This document shows, in pieces, positions 12,623-59,522 of a DNA stretch of 64,000 bases. Each line of letters opens with the position of its first letter. Within the stretch, counting starts at the first letter, position 1. Origin of the DNA: Planctomyces sp. SH-PL62 (GTDB lineage Bacteria > Planctomycetota > Planctomycetia > Planctomycetales > Planctomycetaceae); assembly GCA_945905295.1 (NCBI GenBank), contig CAMDPX010000006.1, forward strand, positions 22 through 64,021, read 5' to 3'. Made by a program: the position numbers and the translations under genes. Below the pieces are notes generated by a model that saw only the letters and a program-made list of their open reading frames with translations, was not told the DNA's origin and searched no databases.

Positions 12623-13492
12623 ATGAAACAACTGCTGTTTGTGGTAGCTCTGCTGGTGAGCCGTCCGTGCTTCGCCGAGGAACGCCTGGATGTCTGGCCG
12701 GACCTCGCTCCCGGTGAGACGACGCGACTGATCGGTGAAGCGCAGCCCCGTCTGGCGAATGAGAATCCTCCGGTCACGCGCGTCATCAACATCACACGGC
12801 CCACATTCACAGTTCACCTGGCTCCAAAACCCAATGGGACCGGAGTGCTGATTCTGCCCGGCGGTGGTTTCGGAAAGGTCGTTCCCGATAAGGAAGGAAC
12901 GGAAGTGGCCGAGTGGCTGAACCGGATCGGTGTGTCCGCGTTTGTGCTGAGCTATCGCACGAAGTCCGGTGCCGACGATCCCGGTTGGTCGCGGCCGTTG
13001 CAGGATGCTCAACGCAGCCTCGCGCTCATTCGCTCGCGAGCGAACGAGTGGGGTTTGAAGCCGGATCGCATTGGACTGCTCGGCCTCTCGGCGGGAGGCA
13101 ACGTCGCCGCGCGACTGCTTAGCGCGTCCGGGCGTCTGACCTACGAGCGCATCGACAAGACCGACGACGTGCCGCATCGACCTGACTTCGCGCTGCTCAT
13201 CTACCCGTGGAACATCTACGACAGCGAGCGGGGCGAACTGATCGCAGGGGCGTCGGTCCCGAAGAATTGCCCGCCCGTGTTTCTGGTCCACACCGACGAC
13301 GATCGCTCATCGTCGCTTGGCTCGGTCCTGTTCTACGCTGGCCTCAAACGGCACGGCATTCCGGCGGAGTTGCACGTTTACGGAAACGGCGGTCACGGCT
13401 ATGGCCTCCGCCCCGTCACGGGTTCCCAAATCTCATCGTGGCCAGATCACGCCGCGCATTGGCTCGACACCAGAAGTCTCCTCAAGAACTGA
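12623..13492 (+). CDS. secreted alpha/beta-hydrolase (esterase/lipase-type)
   Basis: Signal peptide MKQLLFVVALLVSRPCFA, oxyanion-type ILPGGGF, nucleophile elbow GLSAGG, C-terminal GGHGY. Confidence 0.75.
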   Translation: MKQLLFVVALLVSRPCFAEERLDVWPDLAPGETTRLIGEAQPRLANENPPVTRVINITRPTFTVHLAPKPNGTGVLILPGGGFGKVVPDKEGTEVAEWLNRIGVSAFVLSYRTKSGADDPGWSRPLQDAQRSLALIRSRANEWGLKPDRIGLLGLSAGGNVAARLLSASGRLTYERIDKTDDVPHRPDFALLIYPWNIYDSERGELIAGASVPKNCPPVFLVHTDDDRSSSLGSVLFYAGLKRHGIPAELHVYGNGGHGYGLRPVTGSQISSWPDHAAHWLDTRSLLKN

Positions 13493-13845: not shown

Positions 13846-13996
13846 TTTTAGACCGATGATCCCCACGGATGGCATGGCGATACCACGGATAATTACGACG
13901 CTTCTCGTTTTTCATCCTTGGTATCGCCATGCCATCCGTGGGGATTTTACGGCTCCATGAAAGTTCAATTGCGATCTGTGGCACTCGCGTCCGGTT
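13846..13996 (+). mobile_element. MITE-like about 150-bp element, copy A
   Basis: Roughly 135 of 150 positions are identical to the reverse complement of 55042..55190. Internal about 30-bp inverted repeat CCCCACGGATGGCATGGCGATACCACGGAT / ATCCTTGGTATCGCCATGCCATCCGTGGGG. Confidence 0.8.
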
Positions 13997-14003
13997 CGAG
14001 CCG

Positions 14004-14153
14004 TTACGAACTGGGGCGAGTGCCCTTCGGCTGATTGAGATTCTTCGGACCTTGCTGTTGCGGCTCGGATTCTGATGGTCGGTGCTCCTGAGCCATCCCG
14101 TGCGACGCGAACGTCCAACAGATGACGGACAACAGAAGAAGTTGCCGATTCAT
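14004..14153 (-). CDS. possible small secreted peptide (49 aa)
   Basis: MNRQLLLLSVICWTFASHGMAQE... is signal-peptide-like. Its ATG overlaps the TGA of the upstream propeller gene (ATGA at 14153..14150), suggesting translational coupling. No homology recognised. Confidence 0.35.
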   Translation of the reverse strand: MNRQLLLLSVICWTFASHGMAQEHRPSESEPQQQGPKNLNQPKGTRPSS

Positions 14154-35679: not shown

Positions 35680-35999
35680 GGCGTTTCCCTTCCGTCGGAG
35701 TGGAGTAATGACTGGCGTGGCGATTGTTGCCTTTCGTTCTGCGAAAGGACACCGGAGGAGCAAACTGTAACGCCCGACAGCGGTTCTGATTTCGCAGGTC
35801 ATGCAGGTCGTGCGCGATGCGCGGTCCGACCTGGTCCAGGCTACGCATTCCTTCCCATAAACATGCTGCGGCGAAGCGTCTGCGCGGTTAGGTAGAAGAA
35901 CTTCCCTGCGAGCAATACGAACAGTTCGGAGTCACGCGTGACTGCGTTCGAACACCGGATCAAATGCGATGCCGCAGCCGGATATCCAAGAGGCGAAAC

Positions 36000-44248: not shown

Positions 44249-45691
44249 TTACGCGAGCAACGCCTCGACCACATTCCCATGCACGTCGGTCAAACGGAAA
44301 TCGCGGCCGGCGTGGTGGAAGGTCAGGCGTTCGTGATCCAGGCCGAGCAGATGCAGGATCGTGGCTTGCAGGTCGTGGACGTGGACTGGGTTCTCGGTGA
44401 TGTGGAAGCCGAGTTCGTCGGTGGTTCCATAGGTCTGGCCGGGCTTGATGCCTCCGCCGGCGAGCCACATCGTGTAAGCCTGCGGGTGATGGTCTCGGCC
44501 GAGACTGCGGCCGAGCGCGGGGTTGGTTTCGACCATCGGCGTGCGACCGAACTCGCCGCCCCAAATCACCAGCGTCTCGTTGAGCAACCCGCGCTGCTTG
44601 AGATCGGTGATGAGCGCGGCACTCGCTTGATCGGTCTTGCCGCAGTTGTTCTTCAAGTTGCCGGCAACGTCCGAATGCGCGTCCCATCCTTCGTTGTAGA
44701 TATTCACGAACCGCACGCCCCGCTCGATCATCCGCCGTGCCAGCAAGCACGCGCGAGCGAACGACGGCTGAGCCGGATCGCAGCCGTACATTTTGAGCGT
44801 CGCTTCCGACTCCGACTTGAGATCCATCAGTTCCGGAGCAGACGTTTGCAGGCGGAACGCCATCTCATACGACGCGATGCGCGTCGCGATTTCGGGATCG
44901 CCTTCTTTCTCCAACCGCGTGCGATTCAACGAGCCGATCAGGTCGAGCGAATCGCGCTGCAACTTGGCATCGATGCCCGGAGGACTCGACACGTTCAGAA
45001 TCGGATCGCCTTGATTGCGGAGGCGGACACCGGTGTAGACGGTCGGCAGGAAGCCGCTCGACCAATTCGCCGCGCCGCCGCTGATGCCGGCTCCGGTGGA
45101 CATCACGACGAATGCGGGCAAGTCGCTGGTCTCGGCACCGAGGCCGTACAAGACCCACGAACCGAGGCTCGGCCGGCCGGGCTGCGAGAAGCCGGTGTTG
45201 AAAAAGATTTGAGCCGGAGCGTGATTGAACTGATCGGTGCGCACCGACTTCACCAGGCAGAGGTCATCCACGATCTTCGCGAGGTGCGGCAGCACTTCAG
45301 AGAGTTCGGTTCCGCATTCTCCATGCTTCGCGAATTTGAATCGCGGTCCCAGGCAATTCGAGTCCGGGCGGATGAAGGCGTATCGCTGGCTGCCGACGAC
45401 TTCGGGAGGGATCGGCTTTCCTTCGTACTCGGCCAGCTTCGGTTTATTGTCAAAGAGGTCGAGCTGGCTTGGAGCTCCAGCCATGAAGAGATGGATGACC
45501 GCCTTGGCCTTACCGTTGAAGTGCGCCTGTCGCGGCGCGAATGAATTCGTATCGCCAGCAACAGCACCACGAGCCATCGCATCGGCCAGCAGGCCACCGA
45601 GCGCGACTTTGCCCACGCCGATTCCGCAGTCGCGAAAGAAATGCCGGCGCGCCACGAGAGGCGAGGAATCAGGTCTCAGCGAAGGGTTCAT
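44249..45691 (-). CDS. DUF1501 domain protein
   Basis: [47 protein letters not shown]. Lies 6 nt downstream of its DUF1553 partner. Confidence 0.9.
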   Translation of the reverse strand: MNPSLRPDSSPLVARRHFFRDCGIGVGKVALGGLLADAMARGAVAGDTNSFAPRQAHFNGKAKAVIHLFMAGAPSQLDLFDNKPKLAEYEGKPIPPEVVGSQRYAFIRPDSNCLGPRFKFAKHGECGTELSEVLPHLAKIVDDLCLVKSVRTDQFNHAPAQIFFNTGFSQPGRPSLGSWVLYGLGAETSDLPAFVVMSTGAGISGGAANWSSGFLPTVYTGVRLRNQGDPILNVSSPPGIDAKLQRDSLDLIGSLNRTRLEKEGDPEIATRIASYEMAFRLQTSAPELMDLKSESEATLKMYGCDPAQPSFARACLLARRMIERGVRFVNIYNEGWDAHSDVAGNLKNNCGKTDQASAALITDLKQRGLLNETLVIWGGEFGRTPMVETNPALGRSLGRDHHPQAYTMWLAGGGIKPGQTYGTTDELGFHITENPVHVHDLQATILHLLGLDHERLTFHHAGRDFRLTDVHGNVVEALLA

Positions 45692-45697
45692 GACAAC

Positions 45698-48412
45698 TCA
45701 TTCCACATACAAGAAGCGATTTGAACTGAGCAGTGATTGGCACAACAGGGCGAACGCCTGCCGAGCTGGATCGGGGGGAGGCGCGGTGTTGGGCGGTATC
45801 GTTGGCGGCGGAGTCTTCGGCCGGAAGACCTCGGTCTGCGCTGTGACGAAGGCGACCGCTTCGGCGGATTCGGCTTCGGTCGGATCGGTTCCGAAGACCA
45901 GTCGCCACGCCAGCACGATTTGCGATTTCACATCCGGTCCGGCGGCGGTGGCGATTCGCTCGGCCAAGGCGTGCGAGTGGTCTTGCACGAACTCGCTGTT
46001 CATCAGGAAGAGCGATTGCGGCGAGACGGTCGAAGAGTTTCGCTGCGGGCAATTCGGGTCGAGCACCGGCGGGTCGAACGGGTCCATCACGCTGAGCGGC
46101 CGGCTGCGACGGACTTGCACGTAGAGACTGCGGCGGAATTCCTCGCCGTTGAGCGGCACGAGTTTGTCGGGGACGCCGTTGCCGTTGATGTTGTCGATGC
46201 CGAGCACGAATTGACCGATCTCGTCCTGCATCACCGGCACTGGTTTGCCGCCGAGTTTGGCGTTCAGCTTGCCGCTGATCGCGAGTGTCGCGTCGCGAAC
46301 TTCCTCGGCCTGCAATCGACGCAACGGAAAGTGACTGAGCAAGCGATTGTCGGGATCAACGGTGTCTGAGGCAGCCGTGCGCGACGACGATTGACGATAG
46401 GCGGTCGACAACAGCATCTGGCGATGAAGCGACTTCAGCCGCCAACCGCTCGCGACGAAATCGTTGGCCAGCCAATCGAGCAGTTCGGGATGCGAAGGCC
46501 GCTCACCTTGCACGCCGAAGTCGGCGGGAGTGCCGACCAAGCCCCGGCCGAAGTGCTGCATCCACACGCGATTCACGAGCACTCGCGCCAGCATCGGGTG
46601 TTGGCCGGTAGTGAGCCAGCGGGCATAGGCGAGACGTCGGCCGCTGGTTGGGAGCGCTGGGTCGTCCACCGGTATCTGGCGAGCGGGGGGCGTCAGCCCC
46701 CCGGTGCTTTGATCGCTGTCTGAAACCACCGGGGTGCTGACGCCCCCCGCTCGCCTGTGAGAAATGCTTTCGGCCAAGATCGTCAACTCGCCAGGCTCGA
46801 GTTGCTGCTTGGGCGCGAAGTGCTCGCCGCGCGAGAACAGAAACGTCGGCGGGATCACGTTCGGCGTTTCGTTGAGGACCATCAGAAACTCTTCCGGAGG
46901 CTTCGTGCCGCGCAGTTCGGTGGCTTGCTTGCTGAAGGCGTTGACCTCTTCCGCCGCCTTTCCGTCGTACAGCGGCAACGTGCCGCCGTTGACGTTGATG
47001 CTGGGGTGATCCTTCAACAACGCTTTTTGTTCGGGCGTCCGTTTGGCCTCTGGCGTGTTGTGAGCCGTTCGCAACGAGTCGCGCAGCTCTTCCGGCTTCT
47101 TGAGGAGTTCACGTTCCAGGATGCGCTGAATGTGTTCGTCGAGTTTCTTCTGGCGATCGGCGTCGATCTTCGCGGCGCTGGCTTCAATCTCGGCCGCCTT
47201 CGTGCGATCGGCGTCGGTGTAGAGCGTCACCAATCTCCCGTTCGGCACACGCCAGTGTTTCCAATCGTAGGCTGGCTCGAAGATCGCGCGGAAGCGGTAG
47301 TAGTCCGCTTGTGTGATTGGGTCGTACCGGTGGTCGTGGCACTGAGAACATCCCAGGCTCAGCCCCAGCAGTGAGGTCGCGACTGTCTTGATCGTTTCCG
47401 CCATCACCGCATTTCGCGCGATGTTTTGATCGACCGCACCGGAAGCGGTGCCGTCGGGAGCCATCCGCAGGAAGCCGGTGGCGGCGAGCTTGTCGAGGTT
47501 CTCCGCCGAGAGGTTCGCGTGCGGCAGCGGCACCAGTTCGTCGCCGGCCAGTTGTTCGAGCAAGAACTCATCGAAGGGCTTGTCGTTGTTGAACGCGCGA
47601 ATCACGTAGTCGCGATACTTGAAGGACCACGCTCGCACCGGGTCTTCGTCGGTATAGCCATCCGAGTCGGCATAGCCGGCGACGTCGAGCCAATGCCGTC
47701 CCCAGCGCTCTCCGTAGCGCGGCGACGCAAGCAGTCGGTCGATCAATCGCTCGAAGGCATCCGGCTCTGAGTCATTGGCGAACTCTTCCACCTCATCGGG
47801 CGTGGGGGGCAGACCGAGCAGGTCCAAGGTCGCTCGGCGAATCAGCGTGCGGCGGTCGGCTTCGGAGGTGAACGAGAGTTGTTTGGCTTCGAACTGCGAC
47901 AGCAAAAACGAATCGATCGGTCTCTCGGCAGGCCGTCGCCCACCGTCTCGCGATGCGAGCGGGATCTGCGGTCGAACAACCGGTTGGAACGCCCAGTGGT
48001 TTCGTTCCTCCGCGGTGAAGAGGCTCTCTTCGGGCCGCTCCGGTTCCGGAGCGGCGATCTTCGCGCCGCCAGCGATCCAGCGACGTAAGAGATCTCGCTC
48101 GGCGGGAGTCAGCTTGCGTTCGACAGGCGGCATCTCGCCAGATTCGATTCGCTTCAGCAATAAACTTTGATCGGGCTGACCGGGGCTGATGGCCGGTCCT
48201 GTCTCGCCACCTTTTTCGAGCAGCCTCTTCAGTCGGACATCGAGCTTTGCTTCGGTCTTGCCCGCTTCACCGTGACATTGAAAACAGTGAGCTTTCAAAA
48301 TCGGACGGACGTGCTTTTCAAACGTCAACTCCGGGGTGTCGGCCGCGAACGCCGACAGCGACGTTGCCATCCAGCACAGCCCCAACAAACTACGAATCGC
48401 AATACGAGTCAT
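45698..48412 (-). CDS. PSCyt1 / DUF1549 / DUF1553 domain protein, secreted
   Basis: Start at the ATG at 48412 (MTRIAIRSLLGLCWMATSLSAFA). FEKHVRPILKAHCFQCHG, RRATLDLLGLPPT, CSQCHDHRYDP. Confidence 0.9.
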   Translation of the reverse strand: MTRIAIRSLLGLCWMATSLSAFAADTPELTFEKHVRPILKAHCFQCHGEAGKTEAKLDVRLKRLLEKGGETGPAISPGQPDQSLLLKRIESGEMPPVERKLTPAERDLLRRWIAGGAKIAAPEPERPEESLFTAEERNHWAFQPVVRPQIPLASRDGGRRPAERPIDSFLLSQFEAKQLSFTSEADRRTLIRRATLDLLGLPPTPDEVEEFANDSEPDAFERLIDRLLASPRYGERWGRHWLDVAGYADSDGYTDEDPVRAWSFKYRDYVIRAFNNDKPFDEFLLEQLAGDELVPLPHANLSAENLDKLAATGFLRMAPDGTASGAVDQNIARNAVMAETIKTVATSLLGLSLGCSQCHDHRYDPITQADYYRFRAIFEPAYDWKHWRVPNGRLVTLYTDADRTKAAEIEASAAKIDADRQKKLDEHIQRILERELLKKPEELRDSLRTAHNTPEAKRTPEQKALLKDHPSINVNGGTLPLYDGKAAEEVNAFSKQATELRGTKPPEEFLMVLNETPNVIPPTFLFSRGEHFAPKQQLEPGELTILAESISHRRAGGVSTPVVSDSDQSTGGLTPPARQIPVDDPALPTSGRRLAYARWLTTGQHPMLARVLVNRVWMQHFGRGLVGTPADFGVQGERPSHPELLDWLANDFVASGWRLKSLHRQMLLSTAYRQSSSRTAASDTVDPDNRLLSHFPLRRLQAEEVRDATLAISGKLNAKLGGKPVPVMQDEIGQFVLGIDNINGNGVPDKLVPLNGEEFRRSLYVQVRRSRPLSVMDPFDPPVLDPNCPQRNSSTVSPQSLFLMNSEFVQDHSHALAERIATAAGPDVKSQIVLAWRLVFGTDPTEAESAEAVAFVTAQTEVFRPKTPPPTIPPNTAPPPDPARQAFALLCQSLLSSNRFLYVE
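46678..46755. repeat. intragenic REP family E element (78 bp) inside the DUF1553 CDS
   Basis: Arms GGCGAGCGGGGGGCGTCAGCCCCCCGGTG and CACCGGGGTGCTGACGCCCCCCGCTCGCC match at 28 of 29 positions. Translated in frame as ...RRAGGVSTPVVSDSDQSTGGLTPPAR... Confidence 0.85.
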
Positions 48413-48511
48413 CTGCAAGTGCTCCCACAAAGGCCATGGGACACTGTAAATGCCGTCGACGGGGCATGACAGTCCTCGACTTGTCTGCCTGCTGACCCGC
48501 CCCGGTACGCC

Positions 48512-49217: not shown

Positions 49218-50564
49218 CTACACCAACTCGCGCATTGGCTCGCGGTGCTCGACCAGGTATTGCGGCCGCCCGGTGGGATCAATCAGCGTCGTCGAGCGGG
49301 GGTCAATTCCCAGGTTGTGGTAGATCGTGGCGATGATCTCCTGCATGTGCGTCGGGCGGTCTTTGGCGACTTCGCCCAGACGGTTCGTGCAACCAATCGC
49401 CTGACCGGTGCGCATTCCGCCGCCGGCGAGCAACGCACAACTGACTTGCGGCCAATGATCGCGGCCCGCACCCGGATTGATGCGCGGCGTGCGGCCGAAC
49501 TCACCCCAGACGACGACCGTCACATCGTCAAGCATTCCGCGTTCTTCAAGATCTTGCACCAGCGCGGTGACGGCTTGATCGAGCTTGCCACCATGATCGC
49601 GGACCAATTGGAAATTCTGCCCGTGGCTGTCCCAGCGGCCGAACGTCAGAGTCACGCAACGGACCCCCGCCTCAACCAATCGGCGAGCCATCAGCAAGTG
49701 ATCGTTGCAGGTCGGAGCACCGTCGTACTGAAATTGGTAGGGCTTGCCGTCGCCGTACTTGGCTCGAACCAGCGGGTCTTCCTTCGAGACATCGAGCGCG
49801 TCGGCCAGCTTGCTGGAAGTCAGCACGCCGAACGCCGCTTGATTGAACGCATCGAGTCCTCGCAACATGCCGCTCGCGTCCGCTTCGCGCTTGAGCAGAT
49901 CGAGTCCGCCGAGCAATGACTTGCGGTCTTGCAGACGGTCGAGCGTCACGCCGTTGAGCGTCAAATCGGCCATGCCCTGCCCGTCCGGCTTGAAGGACTG
50001 ACAGGTCGCACCGAGAAAACCAGGACCACCCGGTTCGGACCACGGCACATGTTGAGTCTTGGCCGCGAGAGCCACGAATGGCGGCATGGAGCGAGTGACC
50101 GGGCCTTGCAGTTTCGTCACCACGGCACCGATGCTTGGCCGGCCGCCGATGGAACGATCTTGGTTCCGATTCCAACCGCTCAGACATTGATAGCCGTCGT
50201 GGTTATCGACGCAGCCGACCACGGCGCGAACGGCCACGAACTTGTCGAACGCCGCCGCGATGCGAGGGAACGCCTCGCCGATTTGGATGCCGGGAACCTT
50301 GGTGTTGATCGGCTCGAACTCGCCTCGAATCTCTTTCGGAGCGTCGGTTTTTATTTCCCACATGTCCTGGTGCGGAGGACCGCCACCAAGAAAGACATTG
50401 ATGACCGACTTGTGCTGATTCGTGGTCTCGCTGCCGGTCGCTCGCATCACGTCGGCCAAGCTGAAGCCGCCGGCGGCTCCCAACGAAAAACCGCCGATCT
50501 TCAAAAAGCTGCGGCGGTTGACTCCATCACAGTATTTCTGGCGGCGTCCGAAGAGTGTGAGCAT
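49218..50564 (-). CDS. DUF1501 domain protein (no adjacent DUF1553 partner)
   Basis: Start at the ATG at 50564 (MLTLFGRRQKYCDGVNRRSFLKIGG). WGEFGRTPR, GRDHWP. Confidence 0.85.
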   Translation of the reverse strand: MLTLFGRRQKYCDGVNRRSFLKIGGFSLGAAGGFSLADVMRATGSETTNQHKSVINVFLGGGPPHQDMWEIKTDAPKEIRGEFEPINTKVPGIQIGEAFPRIAAAFDKFVAVRAVVGCVDNHDGYQCLSGWNRNQDRSIGGRPSIGAVVTKLQGPVTRSMPPFVALAAKTQHVPWSEPGGPGFLGATCQSFKPDGQGMADLTLNGVTLDRLQDRKSLLGGLDLLKREADASGMLRGLDAFNQAAFGVLTSSKLADALDVSKEDPLVRAKYGDGKPYQFQYDGAPTCNDHLLMARRLVEAGVRCVTLTFGRWDSHGQNFQLVRDHGGKLDQAVTALVQDLEERGMLDDVTVVVWGEFGRTPRINPGAGRDHWPQVSCALLAGGGMRTGQAIGCTNRLGEVAKDRPTHMQEIIATIYHNLGIDPRSTTLIDPTGRPQYLVEHREPMRELV

Positions 50565-50689
50565 GATGACTTCGTTCGGGAAAAGGCGGGAAATCTCGGT
50601 TGGTGGGTGAAGGACGGTATCGGTCATATCAGCAGCCGTCAATTGATGAAAACCGTCGACGACGGCCACAAATCCTGTTCGGCGCGAAC

Positions 50690-50804: not shown

Positions 50805-51293
50805 ATGCTTGGACAACCATTTGACCGGAAAGGAATCGCCATGAGTCAGCCACAACCGGAACCGATTGATCCCGTGAAGCTGCCGGTCCTCGCCCGTGCC
50901 GTCATCGCGGCCGATCACTTTCCGTACTTGGCCACCATCGACGGCAATCAACCGCGGGTGCGACCGGTTTCCCCTGTGCGAACGGACGGCTTCACCGTCT
51001 ACGTCGCGAACCTCCGCATGTACCACAAGACGGCCGAGATCGCCGCGAACCCGAACGTCGAGCTGTGCTATCTCGATGACAAGCATGACCAAGTCCGCAT
51101 CACCGGCGTTGCGGAGATCGTCACCGAACGGCCCCTCCTGAAAGAAATCTGGGACGCGAATCCGCTGCTCCGTCAGTACCTCGGCAGCTTGGAGAACCCG
51201 GCTCTGATCGTGTACCGCATCCGACCACAGCAAGTCCGCTTCATGCGCGAGTGGGCGTTGAATTACCACGACGTGCCACGACCTCATTGGTGA
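50805..51293 (+). CDS. pyridoxamine 5'-phosphate oxidase-family (general stress protein 26-like) protein
   Basis: FPYLATIDGNQPRVRPVSP...VYVANLRMYHKTAEIAANPNVELCY is typical of the split-barrel FMN-binding family. The start could instead be 50841. Confidence 0.7.
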   Translation: MLGQPFDRKGIAMSQPQPEPIDPVKLPVLARAVIAADHFPYLATIDGNQPRVRPVSPVRTDGFTVYVANLRMYHKTAEIAANPNVELCYLDDKHDQVRITGVAEIVTERPLLKEIWDANPLLRQYLGSLENPALIVYRIRPQQVRFMREWALNYHDVPRPHW

Positions 51294-51372: not shown

Positions 51373-53553
51373 TCACTGTTGCAGGTTGCACCAACGTTGC
51401 AGCAGTTCGCGTTTGCCGCCGGAGAGGTCGCGGGTGATCGGCATGTAGATCGTCGAACCCCAGTTGCTGGCGTCGGTGAAGTTCAGGATGTTCGAGGCGA
51501 ACGCTTTGACTTCTGCGGGATTATTTGGCGCGTTGTCCGGGCCCCAGGGGATGACCTTCGACATGATCGGGTACATCACCGAAAACAAGCTGAAGACGTT
51601 CGCATAGATGAAGTCCCAGTTGTTGATTTGCTGGTCGGTGAATTGGCGGAAGTCGTCGAACGGCAGAATCCGGATGTTGGTGTAATCGACGTTGTCCCAG
51701 CCGAAGTTGGGAAGCGGTGGTGGCTGAATCAGCGGATTGACGAAACGAATCATGCTGACGCCGGGGCGCAGCGCGGTGATGTTCAACGTCAGACGCCCGC
51801 CCGGCGGCACGGTGATTTGATCGGTGAGGACATAAGTCGGACCGGGAGGTCCATTCATGAACGGCGACGGATATTCGGTCGGCGTGATCGGCATGGCTCC
51901 CTCGACCATGAAGTAGCGATCGACGACGGGCACCTGTGGCTTGTCGGGATTGATGAGATTCTTCTGGCACATCCAGTACTCCAGATTGAGGGTCGTGGAC
52001 ATCGTCGGTGCCACTCCTTTTTCGAAGACTTGGATCGTGACCTGCGAGGTTCCCGGTTGCGAAGATTTCGGAGTCGGGACTCGCGCGTCGAAGTAGACGG
52101 CGCGGTTGTCGGTTTGGACGTCGATGCTGGGGACTTCCAACAGCAGATTGTTATTCGTGGGGGAGCCCACCTGTTGGATGGCCAACCGGCCGGTCGCGAT
52201 GTTGGCGTTGATGGTCGCTCGGTTCGCGTTGTTGGCGTAGGGAATATCGAGCACTCCTCCGCCATTCTGGTAAAGCGTGGCATCCAGGTAGGGAATCGTG
52301 CCGACCGTCACCGATTGCTCCGCGCCCGTGTTATCGGTGTAGAACAAAGCGAGATTCATCGTCCCCAGGAAGTACTTCGTCCCTGACTTCGGAGCGGACT
52401 CCGGGAACGTGCTGATGCAATCGAGCGACACGACGTTGTTGGCCGTATCGACCTGAGCCAGCGAGACCCCCAAGACGGCCTTTTGTTGAGTGTCGTCGGC
52501 CTTCAACGGCGCGGTCCGTTTGGCTTTGTAGGTGGCGAGCGTGGCGGTCGCCTTCTTCTTGGCCGAGTGCTGAGCAACCGTTAAGAGATTGGAAGGAGGC
52601 GTGTACGAGTACGGCAACTGAATTTGCAATTTGCGGCCCGGAGGAGCCGACGCCAATTCGTTCTTCCCCCAGACCCCAATCGAGCCGAGGACGTTGCCGA
52701 CATACGGATTGGCGACGTATTGCCCTTCGGAAAACTGCTTGTGCAAATCGGTCGCGGGGACGTTGAAGATCGCGTCGTAAAAACAGTAGCGGACCATCAG
52801 CCCCTGCCCGGCCGCCGCCTTCTGTTTCAACTCATCCAAAGCGGGAGAATTGAAACCTGCCGGCGCGAAAAACTGAATCGAGCTGTTGAGGCACGAGAAC
52901 TGAAAGATGGCGGAAACCCCCTCGAAGCCTTTGCAGGCCGGGTTGAGGTTCTTGTGCGGATTGATGTAGTAGGCATAGGCGGGCGACGGATCATTGAGCG
53001 CCAGCACCGGCACCTTCTTGCCGTTCTGCATCACCGAGACCAGCAACTGCCCCGAGAAGATCTGACTGGTGACAAGGGCATACGGATCAACGTCGACCAG
53101 CACCGCGCCGCGCCGTCGCTGATAGAAGACGTCACCCAGCAGCTCAACCGTCGCCTTGAGCAGCGGGTCGGTTCCCGGTGTCGATTGGTAATTGGAGAGG
53201 ACGGCTCCGCTGATCGTCGTTTGCTCGAACGTCGTGTTGTGATCGCCGTAGTAATTCCAGTGAGCTTGCTGGCCGAAGCAAGCGCCTCCTTCGCAGTCCT
53301 CGTTGACGCCGGGCGTGGTGATCAAGCCCATCAGCCAGTTGCGCAGATTCGGGTTGTCTTGCGGACTGCTCCAGGAAAACGTGTCTTGCCCCGCCGGAGC
53401 CACCGCTTTGCCCTGGGGAATCAGCGTCATTTGCGGCTTGAGCTTGACGTTGTCCACGTCAAACACGTCCGCCAGATCATTGTTGGTGGTGGTGGCGGCG
53501 TTGGCTTTCACGGTTCCAAAAAATGACAGGCGTGGGGGCGCGATGTAGCTCAT
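51373..53553 (-). CDS. 726-aa hypothetical protein, no signal peptide, N/Q/T/Y/P-rich
   Basis: Start at the ATG at 53553 (MSYIAPPRLSFFGTVKANAATTTNND...). Long uninterrupted ORF with coding-like periodicity and no motif I recognise. GC is about 52-59% in spot counts. Confidence 0.65.
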   Translation of the reverse strand: MSYIAPPRLSFFGTVKANAATTTNNDLADVFDVDNVKLKPQMTLIPQGKAVAPAGQDTFSWSSPQDNPNLRNWLMGLITTPGVNEDCEGGACFGQQAHWNYYGDHNTTFEQTTISGAVLSNYQSTPGTDPLLKATVELLGDVFYQRRRGAVLVDVDPYALVTSQIFSGQLLVSVMQNGKKVPVLALNDPSPAYAYYINPHKNLNPACKGFEGVSAIFQFSCLNSSIQFFAPAGFNSPALDELKQKAAAGQGLMVRYCFYDAIFNVPATDLHKQFSEGQYVANPYVGNVLGSIGVWGKNELASAPPGRKLQIQLPYSYTPPSNLLTVAQHSAKKKATATLATYKAKRTAPLKADDTQQKAVLGVSLAQVDTANNVVSLDCISTFPESAPKSGTKYFLGTMNLALFYTDNTGAEQSVTVGTIPYLDATLYQNGGGVLDIPYANNANRATINANIATGRLAIQQVGSPTNNNLLLEVPSIDVQTDNRAVYFDARVPTPKSSQPGTSQVTIQVFEKGVAPTMSTTLNLEYWMCQKNLINPDKPQVPVVDRYFMVEGAMPITPTEYPSPFMNGPPGPTYVLTDQITVPPGGRLTLNITALRPGVSMIRFVNPLIQPPPLPNFGWDNVDYTNIRILPFDDFRQFTDQQINNWDFIYANVFSLFSVMYPIMSKVIPWGPDNAPNNPAEVKAFASNILNFTDASNWGSTIYMPITRDLSGGKRELLQRWCNLQQ

Positions 53554-53565
53554 GAGAGATTCCTT

Positions 53566-53644
53566 GTGGCGCACGCGGCTCGCGTGCGAGAGAGTGAATT
53601 GTGAGAGTGAAGCGAATCAGACGCACGCGAGCCGCGTGCGCCAC
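53566..53644. repeat. palindromic element (GTGGCGCACGCGGCTCGCGTGCG ... CGCACGCGAGCCGCGTGCGCCAC)
   Basis: Perfect 23-nt arms. Fills most of the 105-bp spacer between the two co-directional unknown genes. Confidence 0.9.
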
Positions 53645-53658
53645 AAGCGGTGCCGCGA

Positions 53659-54951
53659 TTACTTCTTGAGTGGGCCTTGGCCCTTCTTCAACGCGCTCGC
53701 CTTCGGCTGAGCTTCTCGCAGCGACCAGACGTGGTCCATCTGCTTGAAGGTCATGTTCGGCGCGAGCTGCTTCGCAATCGCCGGAAAATCCACGTTGCCG
53801 ACGCGGCCCCAGATGCCGTCCGTTTGCGTCTCCCAAAAATTCAGCCGGTGCATTTTGCGAGGGCCAATGTTGGCCATCTCGTGACAACTGATGCAGGACG
53901 ACGTCTGCGGGAAATACGTTTCGATATTCATGTTGGCCAGCAACGTCGGCTGGTTGTTGGAGTCCGTGAACTGGTACTGCCAGCCGATGATTTGATAGTT
54001 CGCCCACTTGGTGCCGGCCAGCAACTGTTGCATCTTTTGGTTGTACGGCCCAACGATCGGATTCATCGTCGGGTTCGGCCCGACCGGCTCTTTCGATTTC
54101 TGTTGCAGGAAGTAACGGGATGTGTCCTTGGCGATATCGACTTGCTCGTAGGTCATCCAGAACCAATCGGGAAGCGCCTTGCTGATGACGTGAATCGCCG
54201 TCAATCCAATCCGAGCGTAGGTGAGTTGCTGGTTGTCGTCGTAGAACGCGCCGTAGGCCGTCCAGAATTTCGAGGTGTCGTCATCTGCGTCGAGAATTCG
54301 CCAAGACGCTTTGACCTCCATCGCTTCAACCGGGAAATTGAAATTGAACTTCGGGTCTGCCAGCGCCAGCTCCTGGCCATCAATGTTGAACAGCTCGTAC
54401 CCAGCGGGGTTCTTGGCCACATAGTTGAAATGTTCGAGGTTGTTGCGGACGTCGTAGCGGATGACTCGCGACTCGGGATCGACGACTTGTTGGCCGTCGA
54501 TCATGCGACTCTCGGAGAGGAAATGAATCCAAGTCGAATCGACGGGGCCCAGCAACTGCTTGAGCTGCGCGAGCGTCGGCTGCTTCGAGGGATCACCGGG
54601 GATTTCGCAGACGGTGTTCCAATCGCACGGCGTGCTGCCGTCGGGCCGATAAATCTCCGACACGTTCTTCCACGATTCCCAAACCGTCGCGACCGGAGCA
54701 CCAATCTGGTTTTTGCCGTCGGGCAGTCCACGCTCACCCGGCGTGGCGGGCCAATTGACGATCAGGAACGCGTCCATCGTCGCCTCGGCCAAGTCGGCGG
54801 GAGGGATGTTGTCCTTCCCCTTCAGCTTCAACCGAAAGTCCTTCGGCCGTTGCAGCTTCTTTTGCGCCTCCTGTGCCGTCACGGTCATCGGCATCGGCGT
54901 CAGCACCAAGCAACCCAGTAGCAACCAACCCAGACGGTTTCGGCCCTTCAT
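53659..54951 (-). CDS. 430-aa secreted hypothetical protein with a C-terminal CXXCH motif
   Basis: Start at the ATG at 54951 (MKGRNRLGWLLLGCLVLTPMPMTVTAQEA). Motif QTSSCISCHEMANIG. No other family recognised. Confidence 0.65.
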   Translation of the reverse strand: MKGRNRLGWLLLGCLVLTPMPMTVTAQEAQKKLQRPKDFRLKLKGKDNIPPADLAEATMDAFLIVNWPATPGERGLPDGKNQIGAPVATVWESWKNVSEIYRPDGSTPCDWNTVCEIPGDPSKQPTLAQLKQLLGPVDSTWIHFLSESRMIDGQQVVDPESRVIRYDVRNNLEHFNYVAKNPAGYELFNIDGQELALADPKFNFNFPVEAMEVKASWRILDADDDTSKFWTAYGAFYDDNQQLTYARIGLTAIHVISKALPDWFWMTYEQVDIAKDTSRYFLQQKSKEPVGPNPTMNPIVGPYNQKMQQLLAGTKWANYQIIGWQYQFTDSNNQPTLLANMNIETYFPQTSSCISCHEMANIGPRKMHRLNFWETQTDGIWGRVGNVDFPAIAKQLAPNMTFKQMDHVWSLREAQPKASALKKGQGPLKK

Positions 54952-54985
54952 GAAGTGACTCCTTGATGAATTTTTCAGCCGGAAC

Positions 54986-55057
54986 GCGCTAGCGTCCGGT
55001 TCGGAGACAAAAACCAACATCGAACACATCAACCAACGACTAACCGGACGCTAGCGC
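54986..55057. repeat. inverted repeat GCGCTAGCGTCCGGTT ... AACCGGACGCTAGCGC
   Basis: Perfect 16-nt arms. The right arm is the terminal segment of MITE-like copy B. Confidence 0.85.
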
Positions 55058-55190
55058 CACAGATCGCAATTGAATTGTCATGGAGCCCTAAAGTCCCCAC
55101 GGATGGCATGGCAATACCACGGATGAAAAACGAGAAGCCCTGTTTTATCCGTGGTATCGCCATGCCATCCGCGGGGATCATCGGTCTAAA
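55042..55190 (-). mobile_element. MITE-like about 150-bp element, copy B (inverted relative to copy A)
   Basis: The reverse complement aligns with 13846..13996 over its whole length. Differences cluster in the about 7-nt centre of the hairpin loop. Confidence 0.8.
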
Positions 55191-55280
55191 CAAAATTTTT
55201 ACATTTTGATCAGTAGGCCACCAGCGATGGCTCTGGTGGAAGGTCAATTCTGACCTGTGGCACTAGCGCGTTGAGGCTGA

Positions 55281-58200
55281 TCAGCGTTCGCCGCTGACAA
55301 ATTTCGCATACGCAGCGGCTCCCCATTGGCGGAACAGTTCCGCCGCTCGATTCCGGTACGAGACGGCTTGCGCACTTGATCCTGTCGGATCGCTCGCCGC
55401 AGCGGCCAAGTCGTTGGCCATCGCTTCGATCTGTAAGTAGCCGAATTGCGAGGCCGCTTTCATCGCCGCTTCGTACCCGGCCAGAGCGGCGTCGCGCGAG
55501 CCGCTCAGCCTCGCGAGTTCCGCGGCGAGCAACCGCTCTTTGTGCGCGAAGTTGTGCGGACAGCGGGACGCCCACTTCGCCAATTTCTTCTGAGTCGATC
55601 GGACCGCCGCGACGTGACCGCGGCGTGCGAAGCCGGTCGCACGAGTGGTCAGTGCCGCCCGAATCAATCCCGTGAGAAAATGATGCTCAGCCGAATGCAA
55701 CATGCCGGGCGATTCCTTGAGGTACTTCGCCGACGCCTGCGACGTCACCCAGGCCGCGTCGTATTCGCGCCACAGATACTGCGTCAGCATCTTGTTGACG
55801 AAATAATAGTGCGTGAAATGCCGCGATCCGAACTGCGACAGCTTCGCGACGTAGGCGGCTTCATCAAACGTGCCGTCGCTGAACGTGTCGCGGCCGCGTG
55901 TCTCGCCGCGCAGATTGCGAATCGTCTGTCGCACCGATTCGATCGCGGCAATCGGCTCGCGCAAGCTGAGTGGTTTCAGAAACGCGAGGAACTCATCGGA
56001 CTTCGCGAGGATCTCTGGAAACGGCACGCCGCGCATCAGCAGGCTTTGCGTCGTCCCCGCGCACGAGCAGCCGGTGTGAAACAAGTCGCCGGTGGCTCGG
56101 CCCGATTCATACGTCGTGCGCCACAACGACTCGGCTTCGGTCGCTGGACGCATCCAACTGGTGCCGAAGTAGCCGACGACGAAACTGACTTCAGGCCGTT
56201 GCCGTTCCTGCTGGTACTGATCCACCAACGACAGCGCGAACCGGCCATAGTCATCGCCGAGCGGATGATTGCCCATCACGCCCCCTTGGAAGATCGCTCC
56301 GAAAACCATCCAGGCGATTGCGCAGTCAGGCGTGTTGCCGTGCTTCAGACATTCGTTGACGATCTTCGTCGAGACGGCAACGCAGAGTTCGGGACGGACC
56401 TGATACGCGGCCTTCGCGCACGCATTCGTCAATCGCACGGCGGTTGCCAGCCGAGCGTCTTTCATCAACGGCAAATTGAGCAGTTCGGCAGCCGGACGTT
56501 TGCCGATGCGGAACTTGGCCTTGATGAAGTCGATGATGAACAGCGGCGGAATAAAACCCTTCGGCAGCGACAAGCCGAAGAGCGCCACCGCCTCGCGGCC
56601 GACGGCATACGCATCCGCGAAGCGAGCCATATCGGTCAGGAAGTGAATCAGCTTCTCGTAAGCATCGGCCTTGTCGTTGTCCGACTGAGCCAACCGGACC
56701 GCGCTGCGATAAAAGTCTTCGGCCCGATCGAAGGCGAGCACCTGCACTGCCTGCTCGCCCGCCTTCACGTAGTAGCGACCGGCCTTCACGAATTGATCGG
56801 AGCCTTCCAAATGCAGCGCGATGTCTTCGGGCTTCGCTTCGTCGGTCGATTCCAGCGACGCCGCGAGTCCGGCGTGATGCGTCTTCCGCGTCTCCTTCGC
56901 CAAATGATTGACGACCGATTCGCGAATGCGATCGTGAAACGCTTCGACCTCGGCCTGCATTCCGGGACCGCTGGATCGAATCAGGTGATCGACTCGTAGC
57001 ATCGTCGTCAGTCGCGGCGAGACCTGCTGCAACTGAGCCGCTTCGAGAATGTTCTTCAATCGGGTCGGATGCCCGGCCACCGCAACGACGTGCAAGAATC
57101 GCTGAGCCTCTTCCGACAACCGACCGACTCGCGCCCACAGCACATCATCGAGTCCCGTGCCGCCAATCGCGGACAGATCGAGTCCCGCGTTCAAGTGCCG
57201 AGCCAACTCGTAAACGAAATACGCGCTGCCGCCCGATTGCTCGACGATGCGATCGGCGTTGGCTTCGACGTTCGGGAGGTCGTCGCGTAGCAATCGCCGC
57301 GCGAGCGTGCGTGTCTCGGCGGACGTGAGCGCTTCGACTTTCAATTCGCGCCACGAAGCGGAGTAGGTTGGGACTCCGTCCCGACCCTGCGACTGGTCGG
57401 GACGGAGTCCCAACCTACTTTCGCTGCTTTCCGCCGCCGTCAGCGCTTTCAGGCAGTCGCTGACGCCGATGTACTCACTGCGATACGCCAACAGCAGCAG
57501 CAATCGCGGAGGCTCGGCCGAGGTCAACAAGTCGGTCAGCAGCGCCGCGCTGTCGGTGTCTCCCCACTGCAAGTCATCCAGATAGACCACCAGCCGCTTC
57601 CGCTTTCCGATGCGTGACAACAGCTCGCGAAAGGCTTGGAACGCATCGCGCCGTAGTTCTCGCAAGTCGCTCGAAACCGCCTGCTCGCGGCAGAGCTTTT
57701 CGATCAGCTTCACTCGCTTGAGCACCGGAAAAATCCGCGCGAGCGCCGCGACGTTCTTCGGCAAGAGATCTGCCGCCGGAGTCGTAGGCTGACGCAGATA
57801 CTGAGTCACCGCGTCGATCAGCGAGTCGATCCCTTTGTACGGCACCGATTCTTGTTCGTAACAGCGGCCGGTCAGGACGACGGTGTTTTGACGATGCGAC
57901 AGATCATCCAGAAAGTGTTGAATCAACGTGCTCTTGCCGGCCCCCGACCGGCCATGCACGCGACAGACGATGGTGCGGCTGGCAACCGTTTCCTCGAACG
58001 TTTGATTCAATTCTTCGAGATGCCGTTCGCGTCCGATGAAGGGCATCGACGTCGGAGCGAACGAGTCTTCCTCACCCGCGCTCGTCTCGTCCGAAGCAAA
58101 CGCCGCGACAATTTCGGAACCGTGCGGCCGCTTGGCTGGATCACGCTGCAGCAACTTCACGCACAGAGCGTTCAAGTCGTCGGGCACTCCAATCACAATG

Positions 58201-59522
58201 TCGGCGGGCGGGGGCGCGTCTTGAGTCTGCTTACGTTGCAGAATCTGCGAAGCCTTGCCGAGGATCGGCAGGCGTCCGGTGATCGCCTGGAAGAGCATTA
58301 CTCCGACGGCATACCAGTCACTGGCTTCGGTCAATTCGCGGCCGGCGGCTTGTTCCGGAGCCATGAAGCCGATCGTGCCGGCGATCTCATGAGTCCCCGC
58401 GGAACGAGAAGACGCTCCGTCCGTCGCCGACACCTTCGGTCGCGACAATTCCGCGACGAGTCCGAAATCGAGCAACACGACCGTCCCCGTTTTTCGCGAG
58501 ACCAAGGCGTTGGCTGGCTTCAGATCGCGATGCAGCTTGCCGCTTTGATGCAACGCTCGCACCCCCGCGCACAACTGTCGAAAGACAGACCTCAGCCGCG
58601 TGAAGTCTGCCACCTTCGCGGCCGTTCGTTCCGGAGGAGCCGCCGCGGATTCCACCTCACCGCCACCTGACGAAGCAAACGGGCCGATGATCGTCTGCTC
58701 GCTCGTGTGGTCGACTCCAATGATCGTGCGCTCGTTCGCCGCCGTCGCCGAGCCCGGCTCAACGCTCGGCTCCATCACCGTGGGTTCGCTCAACCCGGCA
58801 TCCGCCTCAGAAACGGAGTTGATGATGGTTGGCTCGATATCCGGCTGCGTCAATTCGTCGGCGTCGATTGGATTCGATTCAACGGAGAATCGCGAATTTT
58901 TATTCGCGAGAACTTGCGTGGGCGCATCGGCCGCGCTGCCGTCAATCGGATCCATCTGCGTTTCGAGAACGGCCTGTTCCCGCACGACCTCGCTGACTTT
59001 CGCGGCGGGAACATTCACCGTTTCGTGTTCGACGGCGGCTTTCGTAACCATCTGCAATTGAGCGTTCGGCCGATCAACCGTCTCGCCAAAATCCGCGTCG
59101 GACGGCGCGATCTGCCGAGCCATCGTCTCGGCCAGCGCTGGATCGGAGGTGATCGTCGGCTCAACCAAGGCGACGGTTGGCGCTTCGCGCGCGTACTCCA
59201 AGAAATCGGCTGCGTCCTCGATCAACTCCATCACGAAGAACCACTGCTCGCCGTCCGAGATCAATTCGTAAAGCGGCACGAGATTCGGATGCGACAGTTC
59301 GGTGAGCGCCCGGAACTCTTGCTTGAACAGGAAGACGGCTGAGGGATCGATATTCTTGAGCGTCTTCAGCGCCAGCCGATTGCCGCTCTCGCGATCAATC
59401 GCCTCATAAACAACGCCCATGCCTCCCGCGCCGAGCTTGCGGACGATTTGGAAACGTTCGGTCCCCGTGAAGAGTTCATCCGCGATCGGAGGCGTTGCTG
59501 GCATGCTGCGACTCGTTGACAT
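55281..59522 (-). CDS. Ser/Thr protein kinase fused to an AAA/STAND-type ATPase and a long helical-repeat C-terminal region
   Basis: - Kinase: LGAGGMGVVYEA, ALK, HRDLKPAN, DFGL, and APE-like FMAPE.
- P-loop: VHGRSGAGKSTL. Walker B: LVVYLDDLQWGD.
- An about 190-aa acidic insert lies between kinase subdomains V and VI. Confidence 0.85.
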   Translation of the reverse strand: MSTSRSMPATPPIADELFTGTERFQIVRKLGAGGMGVVYEAIDRESGNRLALKTLKNIDPSAVFLFKQEFRALTELSHPNLVPLYELISDGEQWFFVMELIEDAADFLEYAREAPTVALVEPTITSDPALAETMARQIAPSDADFGETVDRPNAQLQMVTKAAVEHETVNVPAAKVSEVVREQAVLETQMDPIDGSAADAPTQVLANKNSRFSVESNPIDADELTQPDIEPTIINSVSEADAGLSEPTVMEPSVEPGSATAANERTIIGVDHTSEQTIIGPFASSGGGEVESAAAPPERTAAKVADFTRLRSVFRQLCAGVRALHQSGKLHRDLKPANALVSRKTGTVVLLDFGLVAELSRPKVSATDGASSRSAGTHEIAGTIGFMAPEQAAGRELTEASDWYAVGVMLFQAITGRLPILGKASQILQRKQTQDAPPPADIVIGVPDDLNALCVKLLQRDPAKRPHGSEIVAAFASDETSAGEEDSFAPTSMPFIGRERHLEELNQTFEETVASRTIVCRVHGRSGAGKSTLIQHFLDDLSHRQNTVVLTGRCYEQESVPYKGIDSLIDAVTQYLRQPTTPAADLLPKNVAALARIFPVLKRVKLIEKLCREQAVSSDLRELRRDAFQAFRELLSRIGKRKRLVVYLDDLQWGDTDSAALLTDLLTSAEPPRLLLLLAYRSEYIGVSDCLKALTAAESSESRLGLRPDQSQGRDGVPTYSASWRELKVEALTSAETRTLARRLLRDDLPNVEANADRIVEQSGGSAYFVYELARHLNAGLDLSAIGGTGLDDVLWARVGRLSEEAQRFLHVVAVAGHPTRLKNILEAAQLQQVSPRLTTMLRVDHLIRSSGPGMQAEVEAFHDRIRESVVNHLAKETRKTHHAGLAASLESTDEAKPEDIALHLEGSDQFVKAGRYYVKAGEQAVQVLAFDRAEDFYRSAVRLAQSDNDKADAYEKLIHFLTDMARFADAYAVGREAVALFGLSLPKGFIPPLFIIDFIKAKFRIGKRPAAELLNLPLMKDARLATAVRLTNACAKAAYQVRPELCVAVSTKIVNECLKHGNTPDCAIAWMVFGAIFQGGVMGNHPLGDDYGRFALSLVDQYQQERQRPEVSFVVGYFGTSWMRPATEAESLWRTTYESGRATGDLFHTGCSCAGTTQSLLMRGVPFPEILAKSDEFLAFLKPLSLREPIAAIESVRQTIRNLRGETRGRDTFSDGTFDEAAYVAKLSQFGSRHFTHYYFVNKMLTQYLWREYDAAWVTSQASAKYLKESPGMLHSAEHHFLTGLIRAALTTRATGFARRGHVAAVRSTQKKLAKWASRCPHNFAHKERLLAAELARLSGSRDAALAGYEAAMKAASQFGYLQIEAMANDLAAAASDPTGSSAQAVSYRNRAAELFRQWGAAAYAKFVSGER
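57363..57418. repeat. intragenic REP family A element inside the kinase/ATPase CDS
   Basis: Perfect 24-nt arms GTAGGTTGGGACTCCGTCCCGACC / GGTCGGGACGGAGTCCCAACCTAC. Translated in frame as ...[20 protein letters not shown]... Confidence 0.9.

Follow-up and report, generated by a model that had tools for sequence, protein, structure and literature searches.

A three-gene unit encoding a STAND-type kinase, a predicted c-type cytochrome and a VioB-like protein, conserved in Planctomycetota and Acidobacteriota, with lineage-specific palindromic repeats in its spacers

A 64,000-nt stretch of DNA from Planctomyces sp. SH-PL62 (assembly GCA_945905295.1, contig CAMDPX010000006.1), hereafter the window, carries three consecutive genes on its minus strand, referred to here as the kinase gene, gene A and gene B. 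The kinase gene (55281..59522) encodes a cytoplasmic protein of 1413 amino acids made up of a Ser/Thr kinase domain, an AAA_16 NTPase domain of the STAND type and a helical C-terminal region of about 700 amino acids. Gene A (53659..54951) encodes a protein of 430 amino acids from an unnamed family, predicted to be exported through a Sec signal, possibly as a lipoprotein, and to be a mono-heme c-type cytochrome. Gene B (51373..53553) encodes a beta-rich, presumably cytoplasmic protein of 726 amino acids that is a stand-alone homolog of the N-terminal module of VioB, StaD and RebD. Both spacers of the unit contain palindromic repeats. An earlier note on this DNA had singled out A and B as a low-GC cassette bounded by repeats, horizontally acquired and possibly encoding a toxin or adhesin with a redox or heme partner. 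The two co-directional reading frames it described are present. Their starts are backed by the alignment of family N-termini from residue 1, which identifies the shorter starts as the right ones, and by ribosome-binding sites (AAGGAG/AAGGA) ahead of the ATG codons of A and B, which are kept in the closest ortholog locus, L149 (A 73% and B 82% identical).

Genes A and B are the distal members of a vertically maintained unit in the order kinase, A, B, which is conserved in Planctomycetota and Acidobacteriota; of this we are highly confident. A scan seeded with B and restricted to one genome per species yielded 65 loci. At every orthologous locus (at least 42% identity) that includes the upstream DNA, B is immediately preceded on its own strand by A. 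The pairing that the earlier note suggested testing in other genomes is found there, and the identities of A and B to the window proteins rise and fall together (r = 0.93, n = 26). A full-length ortholog of the kinase gene stands directly upstream of A, again on the same strand, at 16 of the 19 informative loci, distributed over Planctomycetota and Acidobacteriota; the only loci without it are three from Verrucomicrobiota, which carry A followed by B. The kinase orthologs are 58-63% identical to the window protein in Planctomycetota and 40-47% identical in Acidobacteriota over residues ~16-1407, and one BLASTP alignment with an acidobacterial ortholog runs over 1402 residues at 40% identity. 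The spacers of the unit are short in Acidobacteriota (~0-60 bp), which suggests an operon in which the three genes would be transcribed together. Pfam recognizes Pkinase (9.6e-40) followed by AAA_16 (3e-24) in the kinase protein, the order of STAND-type Ser/Thr kinases. Members of that class (Pkinase-AAA_16-TPR-like, PknK/MalT-like) share with it the succession of Pkinase, AAA_16 and a long helical region; they differ from the ortholog group described here, which is syntenically tied to A and B across two phyla.

Several loci deserve mention on their own account. A contig from a metagenome-assembled genome (MAG) labelled 'uncultured Bifidobacteriaceae' (L016, CAYUPN010000005.1) has the same synteny of kinase, A and B as a Vicinamibacterales MAG (L017) and similar identities to the window proteins (~46%), and may be mis-binned. 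Two Opitutaceae genomes (L009, 6658-7653 and 11315-14410; L010, same layout) have an A-B pair without the kinase. The pair is flanked there by a protein with cyclic nucleotide monophosphate-binding and TIR domains (PycTIR, 1e-12) and an adenylate/guanylate cyclase-AAA_16-TPR protein (PycC, 2e-10), which looks like a Pycsar-type pairing beside a presumed metabolic pair. We considered whether the cyclase protein is the kinase's sensor with a swapped output domain; at 23% identity over 298 residues only, this was ruled out. On metagenome contigs, a search seeded with A recovered at least 553 relatives, and of the 56 informative loci 24 contain B, in 23 of them immediately downstream of A. Among the A homologs without B, a recurrent cluster (L083, L088, L093, L094, L099, L103, L107, L110) consists of a tandem A-A' followed by three unknown genes of about 175, 515 and 220 amino acids; the last has a weak PEP-CTERM match, and none of the genes has a Pfam family above threshold.

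According to the earlier note, no motif could be assigned to either protein beyond a signal peptide and a heme site. Neither protein belongs to a Pfam family, in keeping with that statement, but B has a significant, sub-threshold match to the NCBIfam model of VioB, TIGR04492, with residues 85-310 aligned to profile positions 70-289 (E 2e-18, 65.4 bits). Scanned alone, the C-terminal 166 residues of B align at residues 621-720 to profile positions 483-577. For a direct comparison we used a reconstructed sequence of Chromobacterium violaceum VioB, accepted after it scored 1924 bits end to end on TIGR04492; its sole Pfam domain is the ferritin-like PF12902 at residues 605-827. Alignment of the B family to VioB with hhalign has a probability of 99.6% (E 6.8e-25) and matches B 1-717 with VioB 1-575. 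Since this covers the whole length of B, the protein corresponds to a stand-alone VioB N-terminal module. It ends where the ferritin-like domain of VioB would start, and no C-terminal PF12902 domain is found in it. By sequence comparison, B is a homolog of VioB residues 1-575, without the ferritin-like domain of that enzyme, and is predicted to be cytoplasmic. The two proteins have in common the N-terminus MSYL..P.I.F.G...NPSTANN and the C-terminal helical segment YMPITRDLS, as well as the absence of an export signal, which is missing from all 28 B-family members, as the earlier note had stated for B itself.

VioB, RebD and StaD (iminophenyl-pyruvate dimer synthase, chromopyrrolic acid synthase) belong to the heme-containing oxidases and join two molecules of indole-3-pyruvate imine in violacein and indolocarbazole synthesis; heme b is the cofactor described for VioB and RebD (PMC12710047, PMC10851217). 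Gene B differs from them not only in the missing PF12902 domain (VioB 605-827) but also in its surroundings: no tryptophan oxidase (VioA/StaO/RebO) or other vio, sta or reb gene lies within 10 kb of it, and its partner is a predicted exported heme c protein linked to a STAND kinase. The superfamily to which B belongs comprises, by an exhaustive profile search, no fewer than 1248 clusters at 50% identity (311 at E <= 1e-30), with members mostly of 600-780 amino acids. A search for named VioB homologs, seeded with the most VioB-like member of the B family, gave hypothetical proteins only. Some long members of the family (L028, 3145-6621; protein P0263, 1150 amino acids) have an N-terminal extension of ~490 residues without a Pfam match, which is not the ferritin-like domain. 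The AlphaFold2 model of B (pLDDT 82.5) is beta-rich with a C-terminal helical bundle. Sequence and profile searches of the PDB with B found no relative, and our literature search found no described structure of VioB, StaD or RebD. Foldseek matches of the model in the PDB to integrins, macroglobulins and the adhesin SdrG are generic Ig-like sandwiches with a template modelling (TM) score of ~0.1, and were rejected as non-specific.

The N-terminus of A is basic and then hydrophobic, resembling a signal peptide, and the protein contains one CISCH site, both as described before. This heme c attachment motif occupies residues 353-357 (53881..53895, minus strand) and is invariant in the family. In an alignment of 36 diverse members, with identities down to 24%, S352, C353, C356 and H357 are present in all members, as are H254, K214 and E212; a signal-like hydrophobic N-terminal segment occurs in 32 of the 36, and several members have a lipobox-like Cys. 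Because the CXXCH motif persists in such diverse members, A is very probably a heme c protein, in agreement with the heme partner postulated earlier. The 117 homologs of A are all unnamed and none has a Pfam domain. Searches of Pfam and NCBIfam with A gave no match, and Pfam searches with the 36 family members at E values up to 1 gave none for P460; one of the 36 matches PF00034, at E 0.19 only. Sequence and profile searches of the PDB with A retrieved the local CXXCH motif alone (E 0.6). The pair is accordingly uncharacterised, as had been supposed: all homologs are called hypothetical, and no Pfam, PDB or PADLOC entry matches A or B.

The AlphaFold2 model of A is beta-rich and has a pLDDT of 90. 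Foldseek hits 1-5 and 9 in the PDB are cytochromes c'-beta/P460, weak matches over ~112 aligned columns and the sole coherent structural ones. Like A, these proteins are periplasmic and have a beta-sheet domain followed by a C-terminal CXXCH; unlike them, A is three times larger and has no Pfam or sequence match. We describe A as a predicted exported, periplasmic mono-heme c protein of a new family, for which the c'-beta/P460 likeness is merely a lead. At two loci (L145, 5905-9735; L147, 5812-9523) the genes after an A homolog encode a small protein of ~160 amino acids and a GMC flavoprotein oxidoreductase. In this layout, that of three-subunit periplasmic flavoprotein dehydrogenases, the A homologs would fit the position of the electron-transfer cytochrome.

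Composition was computed per gene for the 35 genes of the window. The GC content of A is 57.1% (z -1.6) and that of B 58.4% (z -1.0), against a gene mean of 60.2% (sd 1.9); the kinase gene, previously put at about 64%, has 61.2%. The GC content of third codon positions (GC3) is 0.775 in A (z +1.4) and 0.781 in B (z +1.6), both above the window mean of 0.711. The GC deficit of A and B is thus small and confined to codon positions 1 and 2, which points to amino acid composition as its source, and the host-like or higher GC3 gives no sign of a recent transfer. The share of Asn, Gln, Thr and Tyr in B amounts to 24.9%, the highest of the 35 genes (z +3.5). This peculiarity, correctly noticed at first sight, is real and does not point to a foreign origin. 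The description of A and B as a low-GC cassette does not survive the proper calculation.

The spacer between A and B contains an inverted repeat (53563..53647) with perfect arms of 26 bp, 53563-53588 and 53622-53647, rather than the 23 bp initially given for this palindrome. Its RNA is predicted to fold at -63 kcal/mol, with a z score of -7 relative to shuffled sequences. Each arm holds a 19-bp core that is itself palindromic, CGCACGCG-N3-CGCGTGCG (8-3-8), at 53570-53588 and 53622-53640. On the B side, the arm stops 9 nt short of the B ATG and overlaps its AAGGA ribosome-binding site. The hairpin lacks a U-tract and is therefore not an intrinsic terminator; scans for terminators and promoters found nothing at the hairpin or upstream of A, and Rfam returned for the spacers only sub-threshold matches to microRNA hairpin models, rejected as generic. 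The two copies of the core in the A-B spacer are the only ones in the window, and 1.76 Mb of other loci contain two matches. Of the three copies of the core at L149, two are in the kinase-A spacer and the third precedes the B ATG by 17 nt. Unrelated long inverted repeats occupy the A-B spacer of three other planctomycete loci (L004, 1373-1500; L013, 2129-2186; L008, 9800-9879; arms of 42, 26 and 18 nt), while five loci have none.

The spacer between the kinase gene and A holds a different palindromic element (54975..55280) with nested inverted repeats (55094-55128/55143-55177 and 54986-55001/55042-55057) and outer arms at 54975-54992/55263-55280 (18 nt at 89%). It resembles dispersed miniature inverted-repeat transposable elements (MITE) or repetitive extragenic palindromes (REP), is ~210-300 bp in size and has two copies in the 64 kb, the second in inverted orientation at ~13850..14060, in the intergenic region between the reading frames 12623-13492 and 14216-14971. 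The same spacer at L149 does not contain it. The repeats reported upstream of A therefore exist, but on one side only; placed within the spacer of a conserved operon, the element marks no cassette boundary. Both operon spacers host palindromic repeats that are specific to the lineage. The A-B hairpin could be an operator, a hairpin acting on translation or RNA stability, or a local REP-type repeat. It resembles intergenic palindromes of the REP/MITE kind, which modulate expression within operons, in being a very stable hairpin between two co-directional genes, with an upstream element that has a second copy in the window; it differs in that its core is an 8-3-8 palindrome limited to the spacers of this module in two genomes. 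Since the core occurs only in these spacers in the two available genomes, its pattern looks more like that of an operator than of a genome-wide REP element, on little sequence.

Within 10 kb of the module lie the kinase gene, A, a PNPOx-like gene, DUF1501 and PSCyt/PSD1 genes, a thioredoxin-like gene and a resolvase gene. The PNPOx-like gene (pyridoxamine 5'-phosphate oxidase family, 50805-51293, plus strand) converges with B at 80 bp from the B stop codon; it is found in contigs of the same organism and not at the orthologous loci of other taxa. Gene pairs of PSCyt1/PSCyt2/PSD1 and DUF1501, typical of Planctomycetota, follow just downstream of B (44249-48430 and 49218-50669, both on the minus strand). 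The resolvase-family recombinase gene (PF00239, 62605-63417, plus strand), ~3 kb past the kinase gene, has the lowest GC content of the 35 genes (53.6%, ~3.5 sd under the mean), and the GC content of the window drops to 55-57% from 62 kb on; the gene may mark the edge of a mobile element unrelated to the three-gene unit. Another low-GC stretch harbours a reading frame of 1569 amino acids (35964-40673, plus strand; 56.6% GC) and has 53.8% GC in the bin from 37 to 38 kb. A contig identical to that of the window is also present in the MAG assembly GCA_947498715.1.

Outside the unit, B homologs keep other company. We recorded the immediate neighbour of B within 600 bp at 63 genome loci with full-length B. 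The partner is gene A at 25 loci and a separate PF12902 ferritin-like gene at 9; a second copy of B stands in tandem at 14 loci, two of them also counted under A or the ferritin-like gene, and 17 loci, two of which are truncated, have no partner within this distance. The pairs of a ferritin-like gene and a B homolog amount to a 'split VioB'. They occur in Micromonospora carbonacea (strain DSM 43168), Paraburkholderia species (P. sacchari, P. tagetis and P. caffeinitolerans, where ebo genes adjoin the pair), Alphaproteobacteria and Gloeothece, and the literature searched contains no description of them. They resemble the A-B pair in the B superfamily and in the two-gene layout, with the partner directly upstream of B, and some adjoin ebo genes, as do the A-B pairs of Ferruginivarius (L037) and Gloeothece. 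They differ from it in that the partner is a cytoplasmic ferritin-like protein, not an exported cytochrome, and in having no kinase. B proteins associated with A and with the ferritin-like gene form separate subgroups, ~25-32% identical. A one-for-one replacement of the ferritin-like gene by A was considered for two alphaproteobacterial loci of shared context (L037 and L041) and rejected: their B proteins are only 32% identical and belong to different subgroups. Recurrent neighbours of B loci are a small GAF protein, TonB-dependent receptors, a DedA/VTT membrane protein and propellers of the pyrroloquinoline quinone (PQQ) type. Acidobacterial loci (L035, L040, L042, L044, L046, L047, L053, L057 and others) show a trio of the small GAF protein, B and a tandem paralog B', often opposite a block of a TonB receptor, an MntP-like protein, a PQQ-type propeller and an A homolog.

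Genes of the ebo cluster adjoin A-B or ferritin-B pairs at no fewer than six loci (L037, L041, L065, L067, L068, L150), from Alphaproteobacteria, Paraburkholderia and one cyanobacterium. EboA scores there reach 169 and 153 bits against a cutoff of 50, and EboC-like, dehydroquinate (DHQ) synthase, TatD-like and phosphodiesterase genes are present as well. On a megaplasmid of Gloeothece verrucosa PCC 7822 (NC_014533.1, ~686-708 kb), an A-B pair, a ferritin-like-B' pair and genes for TatD and DHQ synthase are found together, the A and B genes being annotated as hypothetical. Several carriers of such pairs can be cultured: this cyanobacterium, Ferruginivarius sediminum WD2A32 (A-B with ebo genes), the three Paraburkholderia species named above and M. 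carbonacea DSM 43168. A tblastn search of the window gave no match to ebo genes, which thus adjoin distant relatives of its A-B pair only. One study connects the ebo genes with bringing a scytonemin precursor into the periplasm (PMC6282210). A 2026 preprint links them to biosynthesis of the prenylated N-heteroaromatic signal thallusin and reports that they are scattered in Planctomycetota (10.64898/2026.05.21.724671). Neither publication mentions A, B or the ferritin-like partners, and our literature search found no description of any of the three adjoining ebo genes.

The arrangement of A, B and the kinase is real, conserved and undescribed, and its parts are of recognizable kinds: a VioB-type module, a c-type cytochrome and a STAND kinase. 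As a tentative explanation, appreciably short of an even chance, we favour an oxidative pathway under kinase control for a small aromatic molecule, with B working in the cytoplasm and A in the periplasm. In the cytoplasm, a small aromatic or enamine-type metabolite would undergo an oxidative transformation of the VioB type, carried out or scaffolded by B; the product of this step, or the precursor of that product, would pass across the inner membrane, and A would act on the metabolite in the periplasm, or move electrons for it, as a heme oxidoreductase. The STAND kinase would sense a cytoplasmic cue and control the pathway. The hairpin arm over the ribosome-binding site of B might lower the translation of B relative to A, or the hairpin might protect the upstream A message. 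The two-compartment arrangement is suggested by export signals in 32 of 36 A members against none of 28 B members, and by the position of some pairs beside ebo genes; the role of A as a redox protein, by the invariant CXXCH and the two A homologs beside a GMC dehydrogenase. That the genes are native is supported by their GC3 above the window mean. The synteny, the relation of B to VioB and the pairing of B homologs with either A or a separate ferritin-like gene also count in favour of the account. Taken as a whole, the three-gene unit together with this mechanism, the account comes somewhat near to an even chance while remaining under it.

A number of observations weigh against this pathway. 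The score of B on TIGR04492 lies far below the curated cutoff of 1250 bits, so that the level of a VioB equivalog is not reached, and the most conserved motif of the B family, AHWNYYGDH, is only in part common to VioB. B alone may not be catalytic, as the sources found assign heme binding and catalysis to no part of VioB. The similarity of the A model to cytochromes c'-beta/P460 is weak (E 0.03-1.1, TM 0.34-0.36 on a small target) and finds no sequence support in Pfam, in PDB profiles or among the 36 family members. A and B are predicted to reside in different compartments and would thus not form the complex that their tight gene coupling would suggest, and more than half of the distant A homologs at the metagenome loci are without B. 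In the 64 kb of the window, no gene was found for an exporter, a tryptophan oxidase, a ferritin-like or GAF protein or a TonB receptor, and no ebo gene. The lack of an exporter or precursor gene there, together with the separation of A and B by compartment, is the chief weak point of the pathway.

The same genes could instead serve an uptake or catabolic redox system, in which a substrate enters through a TonB receptor, A serves as the electron-transfer cytochrome for its oxidation in the periplasm, and B then processes it in the cytoplasm under regulation by the kinase. A family of TonB-dependent receptors (f4) adjoins B at 14 loci, orthologous ones included; homologs of A or B repeatedly have PQQ-type beta-propellers, a multicopper oxidase or a GMC oxidoreductase in their vicinity, and some A homologs hold the cytochrome position beside a GMC dehydrogenase. 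The window, however, has no homolog of the f4 receptor family. TonB receptors are numerous in Acidobacteriota, and some of the adjacency is therefore expected by chance. The only characterised relatives of B are biosynthetic enzymes, and the ebo genes beside some relatives are tied to biosynthesis or export, not import, which leaves uptake unlikely. A signalling module is also conceivable, with A as a periplasmic heme sensor of gas or redox state, as cytochromes c' are for nitric oxide and carbon monoxide, B as a cytoplasmic adaptor or ligand-binding scaffold and the STAND kinase as output. The strict linkage of the kinase to A and B, the conservation of its whole sensor region, the small GAF protein often just upstream of the kinase or B, and the ligand-binding cytochromes c'-beta/P460 as the only structural matches of A speak for such a module, as do the Opitutaceae flanks, again signalling proteins. 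Yet a membrane-spanning component that could relay a signal from A into the cytoplasm is missing, A matches its structural relatives weakly, the B superfamily, of enzymes, is mostly without any kinase, and the Opitutaceae cyclase protein shares too little identity with the kinase to be the same sensor with another output domain. Signalling as the primary role seems to us distinctly unlikely.

The STAND-type AAA_16 domain of the kinase, the match of its kinase domain to PADLOC models of defence-system kinases and the TIR and cyclase proteins flanking A and B in Opitutaceae would suit an anti-phage or conflict system built around the STAND NTPase, in which A and B would act as effectors or sensors. 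The PADLOC matches of the kinase are limited to the generic kinase domain, neither A nor B matches a PADLOC model, and the TIR/cyclase context is confined to just two related genomes; no features of a defence island are seen around the module in the window, and exported cytochromes and VioB-like proteins are not known as parts of defence systems. We regard a defence function as improbable. The reading of A and B as a recently acquired low-GC cassette bounded by repeats, with a toxin or adhesin and its heme partner, could draw on the unusual composition of B (Asn, Gln, Thr and Tyr 25%), on the Ig-like beta-sandwich matches of its model to integrins and the adhesin SdrG, on the nearby repeat element and resolvase gene and on a patchy phyletic distribution. 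It is contradicted by the GC3 of both genes, which exceeds the host mean, by the position of the repeat on one side only and within a conserved operon, and by the kinase gene, which belongs to the same conserved unit and co-evolves with A and B. The Foldseek matches of B have already been set aside, and B has no export signal in any of its 28 family members and is a whole-length homolog of the cytoplasmic VioB N-terminal module. Recent transfer of a toxin or adhesin cassette is thereby largely refuted and has a very small probability.

If the proposed oxidative pathway proves wrong, an ordinary conserved operon of unknown function remains. The cross-phylum link of the unit to a dedicated STAND Ser/Thr kinase would, if the pathway is right, be an unusual case in which a signalling ATPase is coupled to one particular pair of enzymes. 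VioB, StaD and RebD open the pathways to bisindole pigments and staurosporine-type drugs. In a wider and more doubtful extension of the pathway, the three-gene unit and its relatives (ferritin-like genes with B, B-B' tandems and A-B pairs beside ebo genes) may represent widespread, undescribed oxidative coupling systems, with a core of the VioB N-terminal type and an interchangeable iron or heme partner (a ferritin-like unit, either fused as a domain or encoded separately, or a new beta-sheet cytochrome c). Their products in Planctomycetota, Acidobacteriota, Verrucomicrobiota, cyanobacteria and Paraburkholderia would be aromatic metabolites or signals as yet unknown, and in the subgroup of the window a dedicated STAND kinase would control the pathway directly. 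The occurrence of the VioB N-terminal module as a stand-alone protein with defined, swappable partners in more than 1000 sequence clusters would then offer a handle on the functions of the parts of VioB, and a large, unexplored oxidative coupling chemistry would be present in soil and freshwater phyla that have been poorly mined for natural products.

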